Assembly (NCBI GenBank): GCA_030697645.1 | Contig: JAUYPI010000006.1 | Span: forward strand, 76,017-140,016 | DNA from: a bacterium | GTDB taxonomy: Bacteria > Patescibacteriota > Minisyncoccia > Phycocordibacterales > VMGT01 | Length of the DNA stretch: 64,000 nucleotides | Direction: 5' to 3' | In this document: positions 1,489 through 54,559 of the stretch, in pieces | Layout of the letters: the number at the start of each line of letters is the position of its first letter | Numbering within the stretch: the stretch's first letter is position 1 | The notes under the pieces: model-generated | Told to the model about the DNA's origin: nothing | What the model saw: only the letters and a program-made list of their open reading frames with translations | The model's database searches: none | Position numbers and translations under genes: made by a program

Positions 1489-3654
1489 ATGTCTGACTTC
1501 GATATCGTGATCGAAGGGGGACAGGTCGCTGTCCCCCAATCAACCAAATCGTCCTGCGCCGAGAGTACCGCTTTGAACGCGGGCAACCCCCTCGAGCGTT
1601 TACTGCAACGATCAGAGATACGCTCTCTTATAGCGCGTATACTCCGCGGCGAGCCGGTGACGAGCGTCGAAAAGCGCGCGGCGCTCTCCGAGGGGCAGTG
1701 CGAGGATGCGCAAGCGCGCGTGGCGCTCGCTGATCTTATCTTTATCGCTCTGCGGGGCCCCGACCGACGTCCTGATACGGATCACTCCATCCGAGAGCAG
1801 CAACCCGAGCAAGTGGCGAAGCCCTTGGCAGCGCAACCTCGACGTGGTCGTGGACGGCCGCGAGCGGAGCCACTGTTGTCTTTTGATGAGGCAGTGCGTG
1901 CCCTACCGCTCTTGACCCGTCGCGAGGCACAGGTTTTCAAACTTCGCTATGGCATTGGTGGTAAGGGCCAGAAGTCTGTCTCAGAGACTGCGTCCTACTT
2001 GGGGGTTTCGACCGCGAATGTATATACAACCGAGCGCAGCGCTTATGTGAGGCTCAAACGCTCCTCTGTCGTGCCGCAACCGGGACAACAAAGCGGTACA
2101 GAATCGGCGGATCAACGCACGCCACACACGATAGAAAGGACGTTGCCAAAGAAGCCAGAACAGAACCGCGAGCGGCATTTTCCCAGGTCCGAAAGGCGGC
2201 GTGGCCCGAGGCCAAAGGCAGACAAGCCCGTCGATGATGCACTGCGTGAGTTTGAGCAGGAGCGGCTGCGTGCGCTCGTCCTTGAAGACGCTCGCGAAAT
2301 GCATGGCGAGCGCGAGAGCGCGGCGAGAGCTTTGTTCACCGAAGCCCCGGAAGCCCGGTACGAGCCGGAGGCGTGGATTGGCACGATCAGCGCGTACTTT
2401 GCTGCCGCAGTGCGCCGTCCTCTTTTGTCGGCAGAGGAGACGTTGCAACTTTTCAAGAAGATTGATGCCGAGCGCAGCGAGATCGAGGCGCTCCTCAGCG
2501 CTCACCCTGCCGGCGCTCTCTCGCTTGAGGCTGCTCGACGGGAGCGCCCACCGTGGCACAACCTCGTTCGCTGGATGACGCTAAGGGAGAGAGAGAATGA
2601 ACCGCACACGTCTGAGGAGAAGGACAGAGACGCTCGAGATCGAGAGTTGCTCGATATGTCGGAGACGACCACTGAAGATGAGGAGACAGACGATCCAGAA
2701 GTTGCTCCAGGTCGGGTGCTCTCGCGCGCACTCGAGATACTCGAGGGACGACTTCTGAAGGATGGGTCTACGCTCGCATGCGCGGCGCTCTCCGTGCTTC
2801 TTTCTGAAGCTACGCCACGCCTCTCTCGGCTCATGGCGCTTGAGACAGAAGCCTTCGAGCACAACATGCGTCTGGTCACCTCGATTGCCTCACGGTTTCA
2901 GGGATTAGGGCTTGAGTACCTTGATCTTGTACAGGAGGGTAATATCGGCCTCATGCGGGCGATTGAGAAGTACGACTGGCGGCGAGGAATCCACCTCTCG
3001 ACGTACGCAGTGTGGTGGATTCGACAGGCGATTTTCCGAGCGGTTTGGGACAAGGGCAGCACGATCAGAATTCCGGTGCATATACGCGAGGCGACAATGA
3101 AACTACGTGCGGCTCATGCGCGCATCATGGCGCGGTCGGCAGGCGGTCGCGAACCTACGGACGAGGATCTTGCGCTCGAGCTCGATTGGGAGGTTAGCGA
3201 GGTATCCAAGGTGCGCGATACTCTCCGGCTAGACTCTACGCGCTCGCTCGATCAGCCGGTTTCGAGCCATTCGTCCGGATCCGACTCGGATGGGACGGCG
3301 CTCCTCGCGTTCATTCCTGATGCGAATGCGTCTGATGCCGGAGACCCTGTTACTGACATCGAGCGTCGAGAGGACGTAGCGCAGCTCCTTAAGACGCTCT
3401 CGCCGAGAGAGGAGAGGGTGCTGCGCCTGCATTATGGTATTGTCGAGGAGAAACCGCAGACACTCGAGCAGATTGGACGGGTTTTTGGCGTCTCGCGCGA
3501 GCGGATCCGGCAGATTGAGGTGAAAGCGTTTTCTAAATTACGACGGCGCATGCAGGCGCTCGACATCTCCTCGGAAGAGGAAATGGGAGAGAAGTTGCAA
3601 TCGTTCTTTTCTCATCCGCGCGAGGACTCGCGCGAAGCACAGAGGAGAGCGTGA
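1489..3654 (+). CDS. RNA polymerase sigma-70 family factor (RpoD-like core) with an unusual ~290-aa N-terminal extension
   Basis: Region 1.2-like PLLSAEETLQLFKKI. Region 2 LVQEGNIGLMRAIEKYDWRRGIHLSTYAVWWIRQAI. Region 4 HTH TLEQIGRVFGVSRERIRQIEVKAFSKLRR. The N-terminal part is Arg-rich and contains a second region-4-like HTH (LLTRREAQVFKLRYGIGG...SYLGVSTANVYTTERSAYVRLKR). Confidence 0.8.
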   Translation: MSDFDIVIEGGQVAVPQSTKSSCAESTALNAGNPLERLLQRSEIRSLIARILRGEPVTSVEKRAALSEGQCEDAQARVALADLIFIALRGPDRRPDTDHSIREQQPEQVAKPLAAQPRRGRGRPRAEPLLSFDEAVRALPLLTRREAQVFKLRYGIGGKGQKSVSETASYLGVSTANVYTTERSAYVRLKRSSVVPQPGQQSGTESADQRTPHTIERTLPKKPEQNRERHFPRSERRRGPRPKADKPVDDALREFEQERLRALVLEDAREMHGERESAARALFTEAPEARYEPEAWIGTISAYFAAAVRRPLLSAEETLQLFKKIDAERSEIEALLSAHPAGALSLEAARRERPPWHNLVRWMTLRERENEPHTSEEKDRDARDRELLDMSETTTEDEETDDPEVAPGRVLSRALEILEGRLLKDGSTLACAALSVLLSEATPRLSRLMALETEAFEHNMRLVTSIASRFQGLGLEYLDLVQEGNIGLMRAIEKYDWRRGIHLSTYAVWWIRQAIFRAVWDKGSTIRIPVHIREATMKLRAAHARIMARSAGGREPTDEDLALELDWEVSEVSKVRDTLRLDSTRSLDQPVSSHSSGSDSDGTALLAFIPDANASDAGDPVTDIERREDVAQLLKTLSPREERVLRLHYGIVEEKPQTLEQIGRVFGVSRERIRQIEVKAFSKLRRRMQALDISSEEEMGEKLQSFFSHPREDSREAQRRA

Positions 3655-4920: not shown

Positions 4921-5079
4921 ATCCATGCTGTCTTTGCTTTTTCTTATACTTATGGGTTTGACTGTTTGGTTTGGATTTCAAAAAAAGTTTGTTGCACTCG
5001 CCATAACCTCTACGCTGCTCGTTCTTCTAATCGGGTTTTGGATTTGGCTCGGAACTCAAGTGATAATCAATTAGAGAAG

Positions 5080-5967
5080 ATGCCCCACCTCCACGAAGAC
5101 AAAATAAAATTTCTAGAGAGTAAAGCGAATGAGATTCGCATTTCGCTCATTGAGTCACTTATCGCAGCTGGCTCTGGCCACACGGCAGGCCCCTTGGGCA
5201 TGGCGGATATTTTCACCGCGTTTTATTTTCACATCCTTAATCACGATCCGAAAAATCCGCTCTGGGAAGAACGGGATAGACTCATCCTTTCAAATGGTCA
5301 CATCACGCCGATCCGTTATGCTACCATGGCGCACGCGGGGTATTTTCCGATTGAGGATTTGAAAACATTGCGGAAATTCGGCTCGCCCCTTCAAGGGCAC
5401 CCCGAGCGCGAGCGTTTGCCCGCGGTCGAGACCACGTCCGGGCCGCTCGGTTCCGGACTCGGCCAGGCGGCGGGGTACGCCTACGGCGCGCGCATGGACG
5501 GCAAGAAATTTCGCGTCTATTGCCTCATGTCCGACGGCGAGCAGCAGGCGGGGAATACCTGGGAGGCGGCGATGTTTGCGGGGAATAACAGGCTCGCGAA
5601 CCTCACGGCGGTGATGGACAGAAACAATATACAAATAAACGGTCCCACAGAGGACATTATGCCCCTCGAGCCTTTGCGCGCGAAGTACGAGGCGTTCAAC
5701 TGGCATGTGATCGAAGTCGGCGGTCACGATTTTGAGGAGTTCGTCGCGGCGGTCGAGGAAGCAAAAGCAGTACTTGAAAAACCGACGCTTATCCTCGCGC
5801 ACGTGATCCCGGGCAAAGGCATCAAAGAGATCGAAGGCGACTACCGCTGGCACGGCTGTACCCCGGGAGGCGGGCCCGAGGACGTGTTTAAGAAAGCGGA
5901 GCAGGGGGCGAAGTTTTTGGAGGAACTGCGGGCGCTTGGAGAAATGATTAAAAACGCACACGTGTAG
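5080..5967 (+). CDS. Transketolase, N-terminal (TPP-binding) subunit of a split transketolase
   Basis: GSGHTAGPLGMADI, GHPE, CLMSDGEQQAGNTWEA and NIQINGPTEDI motifs. The ATG at 5080 gives a typical start; the tracked ORF start at 4966 is probably an artefactual upstream extension. Confidence 0.85.
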   Translation: MPHLHEDKIKFLESKANEIRISLIESLIAAGSGHTAGPLGMADIFTAFYFHILNHDPKNPLWEERDRLILSNGHITPIRYATMAHAGYFPIEDLKTLRKFGSPLQGHPERERLPAVETTSGPLGSGLGQAAGYAYGARMDGKKFRVYCLMSDGEQQAGNTWEAAMFAGNNRLANLTAVMDRNNIQINGPTEDIMPLEPLRAKYEAFNWHVIEVGGHDFEEFVAAVEEAKAVLEKPTLILAHVIPGKGIKEIEGDYRWHGCTPGGGPEDVFKKAEQGAKFLEELRALGEMIKNAHV

Positions 5968-5997
5968 CTCAACGTTCCAAGTGAGAGATTTAAGGGT

Positions 5998-6372
5998 ATG
6001 GAGCCGAAACTGATACGTGAAAAAGTCAAGCCGGACGAATTGGTAAGACTGATACGCGATGGACTTTACGATACGATGGCGAAACTTGCAGTAGATGTTG
6101 AGCGCGGGATTCTTGCAATAGGCGGCGAGTGGCATTCCGACGCAGAGGAAGTGTTGACCGCGGATGGTTCTCAAGCGAATAATGTGTGGGGCGTAAATTT
6201 TTATCCTTGGAAAGAGTCGCGGGAGCGCATTGTCTATACATCGCTCATTAACCTCAAGCCGCTCGTTCCGCATCGAAAGATGGAGATTACGGATCTGGGC
6301 ATGCGAACGAAGATACATGATCTTGTCACGCGGTTATTGCTCTATGACGACGAAACCTTACCAGCCGAATAG
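5998..6372 (+). CDS. Hypothetical protein (124 aa)
   Basis: ORF directly downstream of the tkt N-subunit. No recognisable motif. Confidence 0.45.
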   Translation: MEPKLIREKVKPDELVRLIRDGLYDTMAKLAVDVERGILAIGGEWHSDAEEVLTADGSQANNVWGVNFYPWKESRERIVYTSLINLKPLVPHRKMEITDLGMRTKIHDLVTRLLLYDDETLPAE

Positions 6373-6652
6373 CGAGAAGTGGCAGTCGTTTCCACGTGAT
6401 GTCCAAATGCGGCATATCGCCGCAGAGCTCACGCGTGCAACGAGCGCCGGAGCGCGGGGGCAAGGAGAACTTGAGCAGGAATCGCTCGAGCGGTCGCTCA
6501 TACTTGTGGACGCCTCGCTCGCGGACCCGCAATGGAATGATAAAAAAGCACTCTATCGGCTTCGCGATGCGCTTGCTGCACTGTACGCAAAACATCTCGA
6601 TCCTGCATTGAGCCGCTATATTGCCGAGGTATTATTGACCACCACGTCTTAA
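6344..6652 (+). CDS. Hypothetical protein (102 aa; start chosen at the internal ATG of ORF 6230..6652)
   Basis: MTTKPYQPNSEKW... The ATG overlaps the end of the previous gene by 29 nt. The upstream part of the tracked ORF lies in the alternative frame of the preceding gene. Confidence 0.35.
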   Translation: MTTKPYQPNSEKWQSFPRDVQMRHIAAELTRATSAGARGQGELEQESLERSLILVDASLADPQWNDKKALYRLRDALAALYAKHLDPALSRYIAEVLLTTTS

Positions 6653-6656
6653 AAAC

Positions 6657-7262
6657 ATGAACAACAAATCAGCGCCTATCTTCATCATGGTGGTCGTAGG
6701 TGTTCTTGCGATCGTCCTCCTGGGTGGAATGTATTTGTCGCGTTTTTTTTCAACGAGCAACACGGATCGTAGCGGTGCAAAAACTGCCTGCACCCAAGAA
6801 GCAAAACTCTGCCCCGACGGCACCGCCGTCGGCCGCACCGGTCCGAACTGCGAGTTTGAGGCGTGCGCAACTTCGGACAACCAACTGCCAACGACCAATG
6901 AACCGAATACGTCAGAGTGGAAAACGTATCGGAATGAAGAGTATGGGTTTGAGATGAAGTACCCGCCAACATGCCGCGTTTATTTAAATGAGGTATTCGC
7001 GAAGCCGCCTACGCCGACGTGTTTTTCCATTTTTGTGAGAGGGGAGAATAGCTTTAATCTTGAAGAGTTTCTCGAAAGTGCTAAACAAGACAATTCACTT
7101 ACGGCGTTCAAAATCGGCGGTGAGGCCGCTTACCGTATTCAAGGAACCATAAAGAAAATGGATACTATAGTGGTCAAATATAATGGTTTTGTGTACACTT
7201 TTCCGGATGCCGACTTCTTATTACGGGAGGGTATTTTATCCACCGTTAAATTCACCAACTGA
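6657..7262 (+). CDS. Membrane-anchored protein, Cys-motif family member 1 (signal-anchor TM + CTQEAKLCPDGTAVGRTGPNCEFEAC + WKTYRNEEYGFE domain)
   Basis: N-terminal hydrophobic helix IFIMVVVGVLAIVLLGG. Four-cysteine motif. Paralogous to 8159..8887 and to the C-terminal half of 9433..10368. Confidence 0.6.
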   Translation: MNNKSAPIFIMVVVGVLAIVLLGGMYLSRFFSTSNTDRSGAKTACTQEAKLCPDGTAVGRTGPNCEFEACATSDNQLPTTNEPNTSEWKTYRNEEYGFEMKYPPTCRVYLNEVFAKPPTPTCFSIFVRGENSFNLEEFLESAKQDNSLTAFKIGGEAAYRIQGTIKKMDTIVVKYNGFVYTFPDADFLLREGILSTVKFTN

Positions 7263-7266
7263 TCGT

Positions 7267-7407
7267 CTCCATGATTCTTGATTCATAATTCTTACTTCAT
7301 CCGTCATGTTCCTCAACCCATACGCAAAACTCATCCAAAACCCGTTTGATCTCGCCTCGCTCGAGAAAAAGCCGACACGGGACGGCTTCGGAAAGGGTAC
7401 GTGTTGA
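7267..7407 (+). repeat. Partial copy 1 of the tktB 5' region (native-looking leader plus 34 codons, then a stop)
   Basis: ctccatgattcttgattcataattcttacttcatccgtcATG..., encoding MFLNPYAKLIQNPFDLASLEKKPTRDGFGKGTC*. This matches the tkt C-subunit N-terminus NPFDLTALEKKPTRDGFGKG at 10365. Confidence 0.6.
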
Positions 7408-7431
7408 CATACAATTGTATAAGTATACAAT
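7404..7431 (+). promoter_or_regulatory. Sigma-70-like promoter (TTGACA-16-TACAAT) overlapping palindromes ATACAATTGTAT and TTGTATAagTATACAA; probable autoregulated toxin-antitoxin promoter/operator
   Basis: TTGACA at 7404-7409, TACAAT at 7426-7431, 7 nt before the RHH start codon. Confidence 0.4.
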
Positions 7432-7437
7432 AGTATA

Positions 7438-7696
7438 TATGGCTACCATAGACTATATCACAACCAATATTCGTCTGCCGAAGGAAGATTTAAAAGTATT
7501 GAAACAGGAGGCGTTCGCGAAAGAGCAAAGTGTGGGCGCGCTTCTTCGGTCTTTGGTTCGCGAACATTTTACGGGGCGTGCGGGGGTGCACACCAAACGC
7601 GCGCGTCGTTCCGTATGGGATCTTCCGAAGCGCGCACAGAAAACCGGTGCGCGAAATCTCGCATCCAACGTTGACCGCATCGTGTATGGAATATAA
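7438..7696 (+). CDS. Ribbon-helix-helix-type antitoxin (86 aa)
   Basis: MATIDYITTNIRLPKEDLKVLKQEAFAKEQSVGALLRSLV... Its 3' end overlaps the PIN gene by 11 nt. Confidence 0.55.
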
Positions 7697-8117
7697 CCGA
7701 AAAATATTGGTTGACGCGAACGTGTTTATTGCCCTTTTGAACAAAGATGACGCACTGCATCTCCGGGCAGTCGCTCTTTGGGCCGACATGAAGCAAGAAA
7801 ATCGCGAGCTCGTTACCTTGAATGTTGTCGCGTCTGAGGCGCTGACCGTTTTGAGCCAGCGAGGAAGCAAGGCGCTCGCGCTTGAATTGGCCGAGACGCT
7901 GTACGGTGATGGTAAAAATGATATAGAAATGGTATATGCCGACCGCATGCTCGAAGAGAGAGCGCTCGAGCGATTTCGGAGCATTCGCAGTAAAAATTTT
8001 AGTTTTGTTGACACTATCATTTTGGCGGCATTAGAGCGGTACGCCATACCGGCGCTCGCCTCGTTTGATCGCATCCTTGAGAGGTATGCGAGCGCCGGTA
8101 CCTTACGGCAGGTGTAA
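7686..8117 (+). CDS. vapC: PIN-domain toxin (VapC-like)
   Basis: KILVDANVFIAL...D...E...FVDTIILAA...D acidic quartet pattern typical of PIN. 143 aa. Coupled to the upstream RHH gene. Confidence 0.7.
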   Translation: MEYNRKILVDANVFIALLNKDDALHLRAVALWADMKQENRELVTLNVVASEALTVLSQRGSKALALELAETLYGDGKNDIEMVYADRMLEERALERFRSIRSKNFSFVDTIILAALERYAIPALASFDRILERYASAGTLRQV

Positions 8118-8158
8118 TCGAGCCCTGAATCTTTGGCACGCCTAGAAATCTCCATGGT

Positions 8159-8887
8159 ATGCACAAGCGCACCACAATTGTTTCTCTGGCACTCATCATT
8201 GCCGCCGCGGGCGGGTATGTGCTGTATGCTTCAATCATTGGAGACGTGACGCAGGACAGTGGAAGTACGCAGGCGTGCACTGAGGAAGCAAAACTCTGCC
8301 CGGATGGCAGCACCGTAGGCCGCACCGGGCCGAACTGCGAGTTTGCGGCCTGTCCCAGTCCGGAAATTATTTTTGGTAAGAAAGCCGAGGAATTATGCGG
8401 GCCGCAGCCACCGGCAGAGTGTGGGCCAGGAACAGCGCTCGGATGTTACACGAAAAGCAAAAAGTGGTCTTGTTACCCAGAAATGACTGGGTTTGATACC
8501 TCGGACTGGAAAACCTACCGGAGTGAGGAGTATGGGTTTGAAGTGCGTTACCCACAACAATGGTACAAACACGAAGCGGAGCTATTTCTTTTTTTAACTC
8601 CGACGAGCCCTGAGGTTATTACCGAATCACCTGGGATTAACTTTGTTCTGAAGCCGCTCGAAGGGCGAACAATCCAGCAGTCAGAGGATACGATAAATTT
8701 TGATCGCGAGTGCCAGCCAACAATTTTTGGAGGAAGAGGTGCGACCAAATGTCATCCGGTTATTTCTTTTGCTGGAGAAAGCTTTACATTTATTCGAATG
8801 TCAGACGGCCAGTATCTTTCAATCGGTGATTATTTAACGAGCGATCTTTCTGGCCTCATTCTCTCCACCTTCAAGTTCACCAAATGA
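8159..8887 (+). CDS. Membrane-anchored protein, Cys-motif family member 2 (TM + CTEEAKLCPDGSTVGRTGPNCEFAAC + WKTYRSEEYGFE domain)
   Basis: TM helix IVSLALIIAAAGGYVLYA. Same four-cysteine motif. Extra Cys-rich stretch CGPQPPAECGPGTALGC. Paralog of 6657..7262. Confidence 0.6.
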   Translation: MHKRTTIVSLALIIAAAGGYVLYASIIGDVTQDSGSTQACTEEAKLCPDGSTVGRTGPNCEFAACPSPEIIFGKKAEELCGPQPPAECGPGTALGCYTKSKKWSCYPEMTGFDTSDWKTYRSEEYGFEVRYPQQWYKHEAELFLFLTPTSPEVITESPGINFVLKPLEGRTIQQSEDTINFDRECQPTIFGGRGATKCHPVISFAGESFTFIRMSDGQYLSIGDYLTSDLSGLILSTFKFTK

Positions 8888-8891
8888 GCGC

Positions 8892-9050
8892 CTCCATGAT
8901 TCTTGATTCATAATTCTTACTTCATCCGTCATGTCCCTCAACCCCCAAGCAAAACTCGTCCCCAACCCTTTCGACATCGCCTCGCTCGAAAAGAAGCCCA
9001 CACGGGATGGGTTCGGGAAAGGCCTTGTTGAGGCCGGAGAGATAGAAATA
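8892..9050 (+). repeat. Partial copy 2 of the tktB 5' region (same leader; ATG at 8931; 37 native codons)
   Basis: Encodes MSLNPQAKLVPNPFDIASLEKKPTRDGFGKGLVEAGE then diverges. The leader is identical over about 45 nt to copy 1. Confidence 0.6.
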
Positions 9051-9067
9051 CATGATAAAATACGATT

Positions 9068-9436
9068 ATGCATACGATAAACCAAAAAATTAAAGAGATT
9101 ACGGACACAATCGTTAAAGAGTACCAACCGGAGAAAATTATTCTCTTTGGCTCGTATGCATGGGGCGAGCCGCATGAGTGGAGTGATGTTGACTTGCTTG
9201 TGGTAAAAGAAAGTACAAAGACGCAGCTCGAACGACGACGCGAATTGCGGCGCTTGCTTTTAGACGCAGACATGCCGCTTGATATTTTAGTGCACACAAA
9301 AAAGGAATTAGAGGACAACATCAACGAGAAACGCAATCTTTTTTTAGAAGACATAGTCCGTAATGGCCTTACACTTTACTCTGCTACGCAGGGCGAGATT
9401 GAGCTTACCCATACGCCCGCAACGCTTATTACATGA
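9068..9436 (+). CDS. Minimal nucleotidyltransferase (MNT) antitoxin-type protein
   Basis: GSYAWGEPHEWSDVDLLVV is the GSx9-13DxD nucleotidyltransferase signature. 122 aa. 4-nt ATGA overlap with the downstream HEPN gene. Confidence 0.75.
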   Translation: MHTINQKIKEITDTIVKEYQPEKIILFGSYAWGEPHEWSDVDLLVVKESTKTQLERRRELRRLLLDADMPLDILVHTKKELEDNINEKRNLFLEDIVRNGLTLYSATQGEIELTHTPATLIT

Positions 9437-10368
9437 ATGACAAAACGACACAATACGCTGGCGAGTGGTTTGAGAGAGGAGACGACGATCTCCAGGTTAT
9501 GGAAGTGCTCCTGAGGAACGAGAGTATCCCCAATGTTGTTTGTTTTCATGCGGAACAGGCGGCAGAAAAATACCTGAAAGGATTCCTGGCGCATCGTGAG
9601 CGACACGCCCGCAGGGTGCACGACTTGTCCTCACTATTGCGGGTATGCTGCGAGGTGGATGCGTCATTCAAAGCGCTACAACATGACGTAGAATTTCTTG
9701 GCGATTTGTACTTTTCGTCACGTTACCCGGACAATTACACCGTGTATCAAAAGAAGGACGCCGAGGAAGCACAGGCAGCTGCGATGCGTGTCAGGGCATT
9801 CGTCCTGGGGCGAGTAAAAGGAAACAGCGCAGATGGTGAGCCCGGCTTTGGCACCGTCGGTCTCATTGTTGGCGTTGTCGCGCTCGCGGTGTTCGTTGCT
9901 CTCGGCGCGGTCGTTTTGCGCAGCCGAGAGGGAGCGGAGGACGGCGTTGCCGCCTGCACCGAAGAAGCAAAACTCTGCCCCGACGGCACCACCGCCCTCC
10001 GCACCGGGCCGAACTGCGAGTTTGCGGAGTGTCCGCTGGTCTCCACACAAGAGGCCGGACATTTAAATGTTCAGACCGACCCCGAAATGGTTATGAGGGA
10101 GGTCGCACGACTGTTGCTTACTGCTGATAGTATTGATGCTGTGTTACCGTATTTTGACGATGGTTCTCAGTCGGTGCTCAAGCGGCGTTTTTCAGAGACA
10201 GCCCTCATGCGCTCGTTGGGTACGACTTATCAATCGGCAAAGCTTGTGGAACGAACCGATACTATTGCTACATTTGGAGTAACGGTTGCAGCGCAAGACA
10301 CGGTTTATCACGGCACGATAGTACTTTATAAGTTTGAGGATGGTAGCTGGAGGATAACTTCGCCTTGA
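9433..10368 (+). CDS. HEPN-domain protein fused to TM helix and Cys-motif extracytoplasmic domain (family member 3)
   Basis: N-terminal HEPN-like HAEQAAEKYLKGFLAHRERHARRVH (R-x5-H). Then TM GTVGLIVGVVALAVFVALGAVVL. Then CTEEAKLCPDGTTALRTGPNCEFAEC. The stop overlaps the tkt C-subunit start. Confidence 0.6.
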   Translation: MNDKTTQYAGEWFERGDDDLQVMEVLLRNESIPNVVCFHAEQAAEKYLKGFLAHRERHARRVHDLSSLLRVCCEVDASFKALQHDVEFLGDLYFSSRYPDNYTVYQKKDAEEAQAAAMRVRAFVLGRVKGNSADGEPGFGTVGLIVGVVALAVFVALGAVVLRSREGAEDGVAACTEEAKLCPDGTTALRTGPNCEFAECPLVSTQEAGHLNVQTDPEMVMREVARLLLTADSIDAVLPYFDDGSQSVLKRRFSETALMRSLGTTYQSAKLVERTDTIATFGVTVAAQDTVYHGTIVLYKFEDGSWRITSP

Positions 10369-11390
10369 ATTGTATGATTTACAGAGACGCGCATCTCGTC
10401 GAAAACCCTTTCGACCTCACCGCGCTCGAGAAAAAGCCGACGCGCGATGGGTTTGGAAAAGGCCTCGTTGAGGCTGGGGAGAAAGACCCCCGCGTGGTGG
10501 TGCTGTGCGCTGACCTTGCGGATTCCACGCGCGCGCAGTGGTTTCGGGATAAGTTTCCGGATCGCTACATCGAGCTTGGAGTTGCGGAGCAGAACATGGC
10601 GACGGTTGCAAGCGGGCTTGCGAACTACGGGAAGATTCCCTTCATGGCCTCATACGCGGCATTCAATCCGGGGCGCAACAATGAGCAAATCAGGACGACG
10701 ATCGCGCTCAATAATGTGCCGGTGAAAATCGTGGGCTCGCATGGCGGTATCAGCGTCGCGCAGGACGGTGCCACGCACCAGGCGCTCGAAGATGTGGGAC
10801 TTATGCGTATGCAGCCGAACATGGTGGTCATTGTGCCAGTGGATGCCGAAGAGGCGCGGAAGGCAACGTATGCTGCGGCGTTCAACGGGGCTCCGACATA
10901 TCTCCGCTACACGCGTGACAACCGGCCGGTGTTCACCACCGCCGACTCTCCGTTTGAGATAGGGAGGGCGAATTTGCTCTGGGACGGTAATCCCGAGGGA
11001 GACCTCGACGTCGCTGTCATCGGCTGCTCCCCGGTCCTGCACAATGCGCTCATGGCGGTTAAAGAGCTCGCCGAAGAGCGCGGACTTAAGATTGCGGTGC
11101 TGAATTGCCACACAATAAAACCGCTCGACCGCGATGCGATTGTCGGCATTGCAAAGCGAGCCGGAGCCGTTGTCACCGCCGAGGAACACCAAATCGCTGG
11201 CGGCATGGGCTCGGCAATCGCAGAACTACTTGTCCAAGAACATCCAGTACCGATTGAATTCGTCGGCGTCCACGATCGCTTCGGCCAGTCAGGAACCGTC
11301 GAGGAACTTTTCAAGGAATACGGCCTCGATGCGTCGCACATCAAGGAGGCGATCGTGCGGGTGCATGGACGAAAACAAGCCCTTAACTAA
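10365..11390 (+). CDS. Transketolase, C-terminal (pyrimidine-binding/C-terminal domain) subunit
   Basis: NPFDLTALEKKPTRDGFGKG..GSHGGISVAQDGATHQALEDVGLMR, plus a C-terminal domain. The first ~13 codons differ from the two upstream fragment copies. The tracked start is TTG at 10365; the true start may be the ATG at 10374. Confidence 0.85.
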   Translation: MNCMIYRDAHLVENPFDLTALEKKPTRDGFGKGLVEAGEKDPRVVVLCADLADSTRAQWFRDKFPDRYIELGVAEQNMATVASGLANYGKIPFMASYAAFNPGRNNEQIRTTIALNNVPVKIVGSHGGISVAQDGATHQALEDVGLMRMQPNMVVIVPVDAEEARKATYAAAFNGAPTYLRYTRDNRPVFTTADSPFEIGRANLLWDGNPEGDLDVAVIGCSPVLHNALMAVKELAEERGLKIAVLNCHTIKPLDRDAIVGIAKRAGAVVTAEEHQIAGGMGSAIAELLVQEHPVPIEFVGVHDRFGQSGTVEELFKEYGLDASHIKEAIVRVHGRKQALN

Positions 11391-53128: not shown

Positions 53129-54559
53129 TTGCGGCATCATTATCTCTATATCTCTATGGGTTCGAGTCTTAAAGGTTTCGGCGTTATTGGGGTGGTCATT
53201 ATTACCACTCTCACTCTTCTCGTCGGGGGCGCCGTCCTCTATCTTAGTAAATTTAAGAATCCGAAAGTATCGCAAGAAAGTTTTTCGGAAGAACCACTGC
53301 AGAGTGAGAATATTCAAAACGAAGGATCAGAACGAAACGAATCAGACTATCACCATCTGGAGGCTGCAATTGAAAAGAACTATTTTACTCAATGCATTGA
53401 TACCTCCCGCGCTCAGTCGACTCTTTATGAAGAAAAGCAAGATATACCGCAACAACTTGAGGACGATACTGTAATCCAGATAGAACTTGGAAAAGAACTG
53501 GGCTTTTTTACAGCCTTTCTCGCTTCAGAAAAAGATGCACAAATAAATAATCTAACTCAGGGGTTTATGGACCAACGAGCTGGCTACTCAGTAAGATTGC
53601 CGCAAGGCTGGAAACGAACCGAGGCTGGACCCCCTGGTTCTTTCATTGAATTTTCAACCTCAACGATACATAAAACAGGAGATTTGTGGGTTACGATTGA
53701 GCGTGAGACAGACCCCGGCATCTTTCCAAGGTGTAGTGGTTCGGTTCATGATTACTTACCAAAGGGAAATTCTTCTGAATTTTTGGAGAAAACACAATGC
53801 CGAGGGGGTTATTACCTTACACTGCGTCTACGGCGCGACGATCAAAATAGTGATACACACAAAAAATTACTTGAAAAAATAGCGAACAATTTCTACCCAA
53901 TTGACGAAGATTTCCTTCGTAATCGAGGAGCGAGGCCCTCCGTAGTTTTTGATAATCTTGCAACAGATGTCTTAATCCGAGTGCAACTCATGGGAAATAA
54001 AAAGATTCCTCCCAAAGGCATCCTGCGTCTTATCAAGTACACTTCGATACAAGAGGATATCTATGATGATCTCGGTCCACTTTATGATACTGGTATGGAT
54101 GGGGACGAAATTGTAAATGACGGTGTATTTTCAAAGAAAATTTCAGTTAAGGAGAGTGGGCCCAAGCCTTTATTCTTTGGGTTTATTCTCGTGGTTCCCG
54201 ATTCTATGGTTCCAACACGACTTCACGATTTGTTACTTCCGGTTGCAATTCGACAGGATCCCGAGTGTGTGGTGGATAGTTTTGTTGCAGACTTACGTTC
54301 GGGAGATATAGAATCGGCGGGAAAAAAGGTCGGCGAGCGCGTAAAAGAAGGTTTAAGTACCATAGACCAGTCCGCCTTACTCAAACTAGCTGATTCGATT
54401 GAAAGGAGGACTCTTGAGGAGCCCAAAGAAGATAGCGCGAAATGGTACCGTAGTGATTCAAGATCATATGAAATCCCTTGGGATGACGCAGATGGTCCCG
54501 GCTCATTGAGTATATCGTTGTTTAGAGACGCTCTCGGTATATGGAGTATACAGTTTTAG
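53129..54559 (+). CDS. Hypothetical membrane-anchored protein (476 aa), low GC, inserted between atpG and atpD
   Basis: N-terminal TM GFGVIGVVIITTLTLLVGGAVLYL. AT-rich codon usage unlike the flanking atp genes. Confidence 0.5.
   Translation: MRHHYLYISMGSSLKGFGVIGVVIITTLTLLVGGAVLYLSKFKNPKVSQESFSEEPLQSENIQNEGSERNESDYHHLEAAIEKNYFTQCIDTSRAQSTLYEEKQDIPQQLEDDTVIQIELGKELGFFTAFLASEKDAQINNLTQGFMDQRAGYSVRLPQGWKRTEAGPPGSFIEFSTSTIHKTGDLWVTIERETDPGIFPRCSGSVHDYLPKGNSSEFLEKTQCRGGYYLTLRLRRDDQNSDTHKKLLEKIANNFYPIDEDFLRNRGARPSVVFDNLATDVLIRVQLMGNKKIPPKGILRLIKYTSIQEDIYDDLGPLYDTGMDGDEIVNDGVFSKKISVKESGPKPLFFGFILVVPDSMVPTRLHDLLLPVAIRQDPECVVDSFVADLRSGDIESAGKKVGERVKEGLSTIDQSALLKLADSIERRTLEEPKEDSAKWYRSDSRSYEIPWDDADGPGSLSISLFRDALGIWSIQF

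Follow-up and report, generated by a model that had tools for sequence, protein, structure and literature searches.

A HEPN domain fused to a predicted membrane anchor and surface module in an MNT-HEPN gene pair of Patescibacteria

In a 64,000-nucleotide stretch of a Patescibacteria genome (contig JAUYPI010000006.1; the whole stretch is referred to as the window), a gene for a minimal nucleotidyltransferase (MNT) overlaps an open reading frame (ORF) of 311 amino acids (aa) in which a HEPN domain continues, through a short linker, into a transmembrane (TM) helix, a four-cysteine motif, and a further outward-facing region. Our analysis shows that the fusion is real and that evolution has maintained it, as a variant of the class II (COG1708/COG2250-type) MNT-HEPN module. 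The module belongs to one lineage of Patescibacteria (candidate phyla radiation, CPR), where it lies inside a recombination-prone cassette array. The reading that we favor, with a probability of about 0.5 for its parts taken jointly, is that the HEPN domain would be a cytoplasm-facing effector, restrained by the MNT and tethered to an exchangeable surface module. Relatives are referred to below by protein (P) or locus (L) number.

The gene pair and its membrane extension

Both genes are on the forward strand, with the MNT gene upstream, and they overlap by the four nucleotides ATGA. The preliminary description of this DNA, made from its letters alone, had proposed an MNT, an overlapping HEPN gene, and an in-frame continuation of the latter past residue ~130 into a TM helix and a Cys-containing outward region, and all of this was borne out. 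The MNT matched the Pfam families Polbeta and NTP_transf_2 and carries an intact GSX10DXD motif (as defined in PMC11586414); the overlap is evident from the ORF coordinates (Table 1). The beginning of the second protein matched the HEPN family PF05168 (aa 11 to 124; E = 4.7e-22; 78.8 bits against a Pfam cutoff of 22). An AlphaFold2 (AF2) model of the fusion protein, for which an alignment of 20 homologs was the input, showed aa 3 to 130 as a confident helical bundle, in keeping with the four/five-helix HEPN fold. It had predicted local distance difference test (pLDDT) values of >90 over most of aa 11 to 130 (one 10-residue block was at 78), moderate confidence around the Cys motif (C175 to C200), and values of <50 at aa 132 to 140, a linker predicted to be disordered. 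Hydrophobicity in the fusion protein peaked at aa 144 to 162 (Kyte-Doolittle 19-residue mean, 3.07), within a helix of the AF2 model.

For the HEPN part, a Foldseek search of the PDB returned ST0689 (1WOL; TM-score, 0.77), the sacsin HEPN domain (3O10; 0.76 to 0.78), and AF0298 (2HSB; 0.74). The nearest solved relatives by sequence are 1WOL and 1UFB, and since their alignments stop at query aa ~125 to 129, the extension starts exactly where an ordinary HEPN protein stops. Both partners of class II modules are usually small and soluble (<150 aa); here, the HEPN partner is 311 aa long and includes a TM helix and an outer domain.

Independent copies and diverged homologs of the fusion

The identical 311-aa protein was present on three contigs in NCBI and Logan assemblies, one of them a 4.9-kb contig from SRR26726066; its NCBI annotation is "HEPN domain-containing protein" only. 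Among 5.8 billion proteins searched by word index, about 20, of 212 to 478 aa, showed 36 to 54% identity in alignments that run through the HEPN domain, the TM helix and, where present, the Cys motif. When the HEPN part alone was searched with HMMER against 1.84 billion cluster representatives, 4,704 relatives were recovered. The 11 best matches after the protein itself (E ≤ 5e-30) were all C-terminally extended (253 to 478 aa), and ordinary HEPN proteins of 125 to 135 aa first appeared at E = 2.7e-29. Further fused members were found lower in the HMMER results (P0130, P0153, and P0236), and GTDB genomes contributed another two fused genes (L011 and L012:1855-3000), giving a total of about 29 diverged fused proteins with 33 to 61% HEPN identity. 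A search of IMG/VR for a phage origin gave only two weak matches to the HEPN core, neither of them fused.

We conclude that the fusion is real because an identical copy occurs in an independent assembly, about 20 relatives align through the junction, and the best HMMER matches are extended. The preliminary description had also considered a recent deletion or fusion, or a frameshift artifact; with the identical ORF assembled independently and with about 29 diverged homologs that have the same fusion, that explanation was rejected, stop loss included. The fused proteins share a common plan of a HEPN domain, a variable linker of 6 to 12 residues, Gly-Phe, a TM helix often ending in GGG(Y/W/F), and a variable outer region, in which the Cys motif is sometimes present and a PsbP_2-like domain ending in ILSTFKF usually is.

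Conserved class II HEPN core

Judged from its sequence, the HEPN domain belongs to class II. The residues that are invariant in the 20-sequence alignment are Y8, W12, R15, D19, L20, N34, C37, F38, H39, Q42, E45, K46, Y47, L48, K49, G50, L52, A53, R60, H63, L65, L68, L89, Y93, S96, R97, Y98, P99, D100, G138, and F139. A core consisting of W12, D19, C37-F38-H39, Q42, E45, K46, K49, H63, L65, and R97-Y98-P99 is identical between 23 fused and 112 standalone relatives; the tethered HEPN domains are under the same constraints as standalone class II HEPN proteins, whatever the function of the latter.

The preliminary description had pointed to an R-x5-H in this domain. The motif is present in the window sequence, but its arginine (R57) varies in the alignment, and a role as the catalytic HEPN motif is not supported; the conserved set is H63 plus R97-Y98-P99. 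Proteins of the HEPN-T family (PF05168) often lack the His of Rx4-6H, and for them a second His farther upstream, strongly conserved, has been proposed to complete an alternative active site (PMC3710099). H63 and R97 correspond to this proposed site of an alternative His plus the motif Arg. The RX4HXY motif is carried by the experimentally studied type VII systems and, according to a 2024 paper, by class I modules only (PMC11586414). Because RX4HXY is confined to class I, "toxin" and "RNase" are inferences when applied to class II. The earlier label of a type II/VII toxin was likewise an assumption, as the RX4HXY of the characterized type VII systems is absent from the window HEPN domain. Our literature search found no functional study of the PF05168 (class II) half of the MNT-HEPN modules.

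Cys module and outer region

The Cys motif of the fusion protein, C175-TEEAKLCPDGTTALRTGPNCEFAE-C200, is encoded by a direct repeat (D1) that is present in three copies with 79 to 82% identity, at positions 6786, 8273, and 9952 (the modules themselves are at 6789-6866, 8276-8353, and 9955-10032). The other two copies are in the neighboring paralogs 1 and 2 (Table 1). The preliminary description had held that the fusion carries the same extracytoplasmic module as these paralogs, which is correct for the TM helix and the Cys motif but not for what follows: the PsbP_2-like domain, 'WKTYRNEEYGFE', is encoded by a two-copy repeat (D4) that is found in both neighbors and is absent from the fusion. 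The C-terminal alpha+beta domain of the fusion protein had weak Foldseek matches to NTF2-like and VirB8-like domains, and the model suggests that it is possibly NTF2-like. The C-terminal ~110 aa had no detectable sequence relatives and no Pfam family; at the level of sequence, this domain is unique to the window protein.

About 100 other proteins have the Cys module after an N-terminal TM anchor. As a 26-residue unit, C-x3-AK-x-CPDG-x4-RTGPNCEF-x2-C, it is widespread in TM-anchored metagenome proteins, many of them from Patescibacteria, often as two to five tandem copies (in proteins such as P0021, P0023, P0025, and P0034). It has no family in the Pfam copy that we used, and similarity to pacifastin- or Kazal-type inhibitors was found only below threshold, as in the Pacifastin_I match of P0023. 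Two fused relatives, P0002 and P0003 (from L001 and L090), are identical over the HEPN domain, the TM helix, the Cys motif, and the last ~200 aa, and differ by a Cys-rich insert of ~35 aa that is close to part of window paralog 2 (8159-8887). This difference shows directly that modules are shuffled in the outer region.

Fused and split forms

The standalone HEPN proteins that are closest to the window protein (47 to 52% identity) are in Patescibacteria genomes. At L009, L012, and L068, the gene located 8 to 56 nt after a standalone HEPN gene encodes an N-terminally anchored, PsbP_2-like surface protein (beginning with MQKQKGISTLIG at L068). The split MNT, HEPN, and TM-protein cassette of L009 (5564-6924) lies between atpA and atpG. 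L012 has two MNT-HEPN modules 2.6 kb apart, one of which is fused (1557-3000; junction, EKQKGIFPP..) and the other split (5612-7117). A neighbor-joining tree of the HEPN domain (about 130 columns), which is indicative only, placed most of the fused proteins in one clade, with the unfused L009, L010, L012, L013, and L014 nested inside; the fused P0153, P0236, and L012b grouped elsewhere, with standalone HEPN proteins, so that fused forms occur in at least three places. Such repeated fusion and fission of neighboring genes argues for a functional link between the HEPN protein and the surface protein (the Rosetta-stone argument).

Proposed function and alternative explanations

In the reading that we favor, the HEPN domain (aa 3 to 130) would fold in the cytoplasm, and a short flexible linker ending in Gly-Phe would lead into one TM helix. 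The remainder of the protein would form the exchangeable extracytoplasmic module, made up here of the four-Cys motif and the alpha+beta domain and, in most relatives, of a PsbP_2-like domain. The single TM helix, the Cys-rich C-terminal side, and the disulfide machinery of CPR bacteria point to a single-pass topology with the N terminus inside and the C terminus outside; genes for enzymes that form extracytoplasmic disulfides are enriched in CPR genomes (PMC6744442). The soluble MNT, produced from the overlapping upstream gene, would bind the HEPN domain at the inner face of the membrane and keep it inactive, either by binding or by nucleotidylylation. We infer this restraint from the gene overlap, the intact catalytic motif, and the analogy with class I systems. 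The HEPN domain would be the effector, most likely an RNase acting through the alternative H63/R97 site. Tethering might make the activity or the stability of the HEPN domain depend on the state of the surface module, as in Ire1-type sensor RNases or RseA-type regulators; coupling of the effector to the cell surface by the outer domain is suggested by the Rosetta-stone argument and by three other groups of TM-HEPN proteins.

Several points weigh against this reading. The canonical Rx4-6H/RX4HXY is absent throughout the family, with no His at 4 to 6 residues after R97 (YPDNYTVY), and we found no report in the literature of toxicity or RNA cleavage by a class II (PF05168-type) HEPN-MNT pair. Since close relatives work as standalone HEPN proteins (L010, L013, and L014), tethering is not required for basic HEPN function, and the tree that places the fused forms is, as noted, only indicative. 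The outer domain, a putative sensor, is swapped freely between relatives (P0002 versus P0003), and a passive "cargo" on an addiction module would also fit such free swapping. Lastly, the invariance of Gly-Phe is unexplained by simple tethering.

This invariance is central to the main rival of the tethered effector, an explanation that we consider rather unlikely, in which the fusion would be a pro-protein with a "giant leader." The TM segment would be a class III (prepilin-type) signal with the HEPN domain in place of the short leader, cut by a PilD-family peptidase between G138 and F139 at the cytoplasmic face, and the products would be a soluble HEPN protein of ~138 aa, the size of a standalone HEPN protein, and a mature surface protein. 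Such an arrangement could ensure a strict 1:1 ratio of toxin to surface protein or make HEPN release dependent on membrane insertion and processing. In the 20-sequence alignment, G138 and F139 match the HEPN core in invariance, whereas the flanking linker and TM sequences vary, and Gly-Phe is found in 28 of 29 fused proteins versus 8 of 87 HEPN-less TM-Cys relatives (counts that are not phylogenetically independent). As in prepilin-type signals, the Gly is followed by a hydrophobic helix of ~20 residues (helix 142-167 after G138-F139). Prepilin-like junctions occur in fused relatives (SGFTLISIIIVIAAIA in P0010, KGFTLIS in P0121, and EKQKGF in P0007), and HEPN-less relatives have the GF/TM module behind short basic leaders (MEESEVVKGFGAV.., MNNQKGISSLIG.., MKNQKGITLLI.., and MKLTMKNSNGFSTLG..); a further short leader of this kind, MGSSLKGFGVIGVV.., is found at position 53156 of the window. 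One of these short-leader relatives, P0095, scored above the curated cutoff (20.2 versus 20 bits) on TIGR02537, the archaellin/type IV pilin N-terminal domain; the P0010 junction came near the cutoff of Pfam N_methyl (PF07963) but stayed below it (19.1 versus 21.2 bits); and P0007, P0010, P0011, and P0013 had weak matches to prepilin-peptidase-dependent proteins (E = 0.02 to 0.07). At L002, a GF-TM DNA segment (72 to 83% identical) follows three unlike N-terminal parts, a 9-aa leader, a 137-aa HEPN domain, and a 115-aa unrelated domain. The HEPN product of such a cleavage would be only about 8 aa longer than standalone relatives, and PilD is widespread in CPR (PMC6744442). On the other hand, the window protein had no N_methyl or pilin-type match in Pfam or NCBIfam, the profile matches of the fused proteins were all below threshold, and Glu at +5 is absent from all members. 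Typical leaders are short (about 5 to 30 aa) and basic, whereas 137 residues, forming a folded HEPN domain, precede the Gly here, and positions -2 to -5 are acidic (ADGEPG before F139); we know of no prepilin leader of >100 aa. A motif scan of the 64-kb window found no pilD or canonical pilin gene. The invariance of Gly-Phe could also be inherited from one founder and kept for a structural reason, for example if a glycine hinge beside an aromatic residue at the membrane interface were needed.

An explanation outside toxin-antitoxin (TA) biology, and a less probable one than cleavage at Gly-Phe, is that the pair forms a two-subunit nucleotidyltransferase, with the HEPN protein as the substrate-binding subunit as in kanamycin nucleotidyltransferase. 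Once anchored, such an enzyme could act on a membrane-proximal substrate or on the surface protein's own cytoplasmic end. A HEPN domain without the canonical RNase motif next to an MNT with an intact catalytic motif would suit this role, HEPN proteins were originally interpreted as substrate-binding partners of MNTs (PMC3710099), and a module that is upstream of tktC or its remnant in 9 of 10 loci looks resident and less like a mobile addiction module. Nevertheless, classic TA modules make up the surrounding array (RHH-PIN here, with BrnT/BrnA and ParE in relatives), the strictly conserved H63, R97, E45, K46, and K49 match the proposed alternative HEPN RNase site, and we can name no candidate substrate. 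COG1708/COG2250 pairs have moreover been identified by Makarova et al. as mobile TA-like modules that insert into conserved operons (PMC2701414). An accidental or recent fusion with a functionless product, whether by stop loss, recombination at the TM/Cys repeats, or an assembly or sequencing error, is highly improbable, and for the family as a whole it is effectively refuted. It would find support in the repeat-rich locus, which promotes recombination, in an out-of-frame ATG (9833) and stop codons (TAA at 9815 and TGA at 9837) at the junction, and in a comparable one-off in L002, where a DUF5674 partner is fused to GF-TM. Against it stand the identical ORF in independent assemblies, the conserved synteny, and a junction that is conserved among about 29 diverged homologs from many samples.

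Genomic context

The gene order begins with tktN, DUF5674 with a small partner, TM-Cys paralog 1, a tktC remnant (7306-7407), and RHH-PIN, and continues with TM-Cys paralog 2, a second tktC remnant (8931-9080), the MNT gene, the HEPN fusion, and tktC, which starts 6 nt after the fusion stop codon (Table 1). A split transketolase operon is thus interrupted at 5968-10373 by a 4.4-kb array of three units, each made up of a two-gene module and a TM surface protein gene. Between the units lie shortened copies of the tktC 5′ end with 82 to 84% identity; the repeat at the second remnant (D3) comprises 8955-9046 and 10395-10486 and is 82% identical. The RHH-PIN unit, which follows the remnant at 7306-7407, has the same cassette layout in unfused form; its RHH_1 match was below threshold (17.5 bits versus a cutoff of 20.5).

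Table 1. Features of the MNT-HEPN locus and the surrounding array (positions in the window)
Feature	Position	Strand	Evidence or remark
tktN, transketolase N-terminal subunit; left boundary of the 4.4-kb cassette array	4966..5967	+	Translation
Paralog 1: N-terminal TM, Cys motif, and PsbP_2-like domain, without HEPN	6657..7262	+	
RHH (7439-7696) and PIN (7686-8117) toxin-antitoxin pair	7439..8117	+	RHH_1, E = 0.004; PIN, E = 1.9e-12
Paralog 2: N-terminal TM, Cys motif, and PsbP_2-like domain; 41 nt downstream of PIN gene	8159..8887	+	
tktC 5′ remnant ORF, 49 aa, MSLNPQAKLVPNPFDIASLEKKPTRDGFGKGLVEAGE...; left border of MNT/HEPN cassette	8931..9080	+	Repeat D3
MNT, 122 aa; presumed antitoxin or regulator	9068..9436	+	Pfam Polbeta, E = 5.4e-12; NTP_transf_2, E = 1.6e-11
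MNT catalytic signature, G28-S-x10-D40-V-D42	9149..9193	+	Regular expression on translation; GSx10DxD intact
Fusion ORF, 311 aa: HEPN, GF linker, TM helix, 4-Cys module, alpha+beta domain	9433..10368	+	
HEPN domain, aa 3-130; cytoplasmic (predicted)	9439..9822	+	PF05168, AF2, Foldseek, PDB sequence matches
Gly138-Phe139, HEPN/TM junction; candidate processing site or hinge	9844..9849	+	Invariant in 20-sequence alignment
Single TM helix, aa 142-167	9856..9933	+	AF2 helix; Kyte-Doolittle
4-Cys module CTEEAKLCPDGTTALRTGPNCEFAEC, aa 175-200; presumed disulfide bonded, extracytoplasmic	9955..10032	+	Three-copy repeat D1
C-terminal alpha+beta domain, aa 217-310; four helices, then four-stranded sheet	10081..10362	+	AF2 pLDDT, 55-81
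tktC, transketolase C-terminal subunit	10374..11390	+	Transket_pyr, E = 9e-41; Transketolase_C, E = 9e-25; ATG start per L089 gene call

This arrangement recurs in relatives. An MNT gene (108 to 130 aa) is located immediately upstream of the fused HEPN gene in all 10 distinct loci that were read, and the fused gene abuts tktC or a tktC remnant in 9 of the 10. The distance to tktC is 0 to 32 nt in the window, L001, L004/5, L006, L007, L011, and L090/91; at L002, what comes next is a truncated 5′ end of tktC, and L008 is the sole exception to tktC adjacency. Transketolase_N genes occupy the tktN-equivalent position in L001, L002, L004, L007, and L090. L001 and L004 have the equivalent tktC remnant directly upstream of the MNT gene; gene calling in L089 predicted it as a gene of 49 aa, and in L011 it is about 1.3 kb upstream, with two TM-protein genes in between. 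The consensus N terminus, M-x-LNP-x-AKL.., is better kept in the remnants than in the working tktC start (MIYRDAHL..), and therefore each incoming cassette seems to have supplied a new gene start. The array may have been left by repeated Campbell-type recombination, with each cassette bringing its own tktC start. No recombinase is present near the array.

A scan for promoters and terminators between 5900 and 11600 gave no excess over shuffled sequences and no terminator between the MNT gene, the fusion, and tktC. A near-consensus sigma-70-type promoter (TTGACA-16-TACAAT; 11 of 12 positions) was observed at 7404-7431, after the first tktC remnant and before RHH-PIN. The DUF5674 gene (5998-6372) and its overlapping, helical partner of ~102 aa (6344-6652) form a conserved pair that is also found in L001 and L090 and looks TA-like. 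At L002:9851-11262, the DUF5674 partner is fused via SSGF to the same TM/PsbP_2-like module. Because 119 of 120 homologs of this partner (~109 aa) are standalone, this fusion is a one-off and is not usable as independent support for function. Elsewhere in the window, a TM surface protein of 467 aa with the leader MGSSLKGFGVIGVV.. is encoded at 53156-54559, between atpG and atpD, and conserved operons seem to be preferred landing sites for such cassettes in CPR genomes. Two protease genes were seen near the module in relatives, one for an HtrA-like (Trypsin_2 plus PDZ) protease directly upstream of the MNT gene (L008:1210-2499) and one for an M50 site-2 protease three genes upstream of tktN (L007:761-1831). 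These single cases are probably due to chance; they would matter if the tethered HEPN domain were released by regulated proteolysis.

Significance

The family offers a natural handle on what MNT-HEPN modules are for. Its HEPN domain is built into one chain with a membrane anchor and an exchangeable surface domain, has long been kept in this form in an ultrasmall and probably episymbiotic lineage, and is interconvertible with a three-gene split form. An effector tied in this way to the cell surface could mean a role in host contact, phage adsorption, or envelope state. If Gly-Phe is a processing site, the family may represent prepilin peptidase substrates of a new class, and toxin release would follow a new logic, with the making or activation of a toxin-like protein mechanically linked to the exporting of a variable surface protein. 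The locus is also a record of how cassettes, each consisting of a two-gene module and a surface protein gene, accumulate at the 5′ end of the essential tktC, each with a replacement start, which makes it a compact model for island formation in CPR genomes.

Comparison with known systems

The type VII HepT/MntA systems (class I; Shewanella, Aphanizomenon, Legionella, and PDB entry 8XEH) share with the window module the two-gene MNT/HEPN organization and GSx10DxD, and, by analogy, a common logic in which the MNT neutralizes the HEPN protein may be expected. By motif and family, however, the window module is not a member of this class. Its HEPN domain matched only PF05168, as opposed to the HepT family, which we take to be DUF86/PF01934, and it is without RX4HXY and hence without the tyrosine that accepts AMPylation. 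The Foldseek TM-score to 8XEH_B was 0.50, and no HepT-type sequence in the PDB matched at E ≤ 1.

Type IV pilin-like proteins, the substrates of prepilin peptidase, likewise carry Gly at -1 and Phe at +1 ahead of a stretch of ~20 hydrophobic residues. In the window family, the "leader" is a folded domain of 137 aa, Glu+5 is lacking, and the scores of the fused proteins are below threshold. The KEN-domain RNases Ire1 and RNase L and the RseA-type regulators would be functional analogs only, with a cytoplasmic effector, a single TM helix, an outward sensor, and activity controlled by dimerization or regulated proteolysis. Their sensor and linker regions are not homologous to those of the window family, which also has no kinase domain.

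Three TM-associated HEPN groups were described in the 2013 census of the HEPN superfamily, none of them of the MNT-paired PF05168 type, and they were proposed to be sensor-coupled membrane HEPN proteins that link a surface stimulus to RNA cleavage (PMC3710099). These groups of Anantharaman et al. are DUF4145 with a WP-signature TM, the Abi2/Swt1-type STY4199, and the HEPN-2TM-Zn-ribbon protein Plim_2023. Like the window family, they have a cytoplasmic HEPN domain on an inner-membrane protein; unlike it, they come from different HEPN families, arrange their TM segments differently, and lack an MNT partner. The window family, in contrast, combines HEPN-T and an MNT partner with one TM helix on the C-terminal side and a GF junction, and has no Zn-ribbon. 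The view in the preliminary description that a membrane-tethered HEPN is unusual for such a module is therefore supported, and we found no paper describing a membrane-anchored, MNT-paired HEPN or relevantly linking HEPN and Parcubacteria.

The closest known systems are the class II MNT-HEPN modules (COG1708 plus COG2250/PF05168 "HEPN-T"; 1WOL ST0689, 1UFB TT1696, and 2HSB AF0298), with which the window module shares the overlapping MNT-then-HEPN order, the HEPN family and fold, the core (E45-K46..K49, H63, and R97-Y98-P99), and insertion inside conserved operons. Known class II members are soluble proteins of ~120 to 135 aa or MNT-HEPN fusions; in the window family, the HEPN domain is extended at its C terminus by a GF junction, a TM helix, and an extracytoplasmic part, and the gene pair is fixed beside tktC in one CPR lineage.

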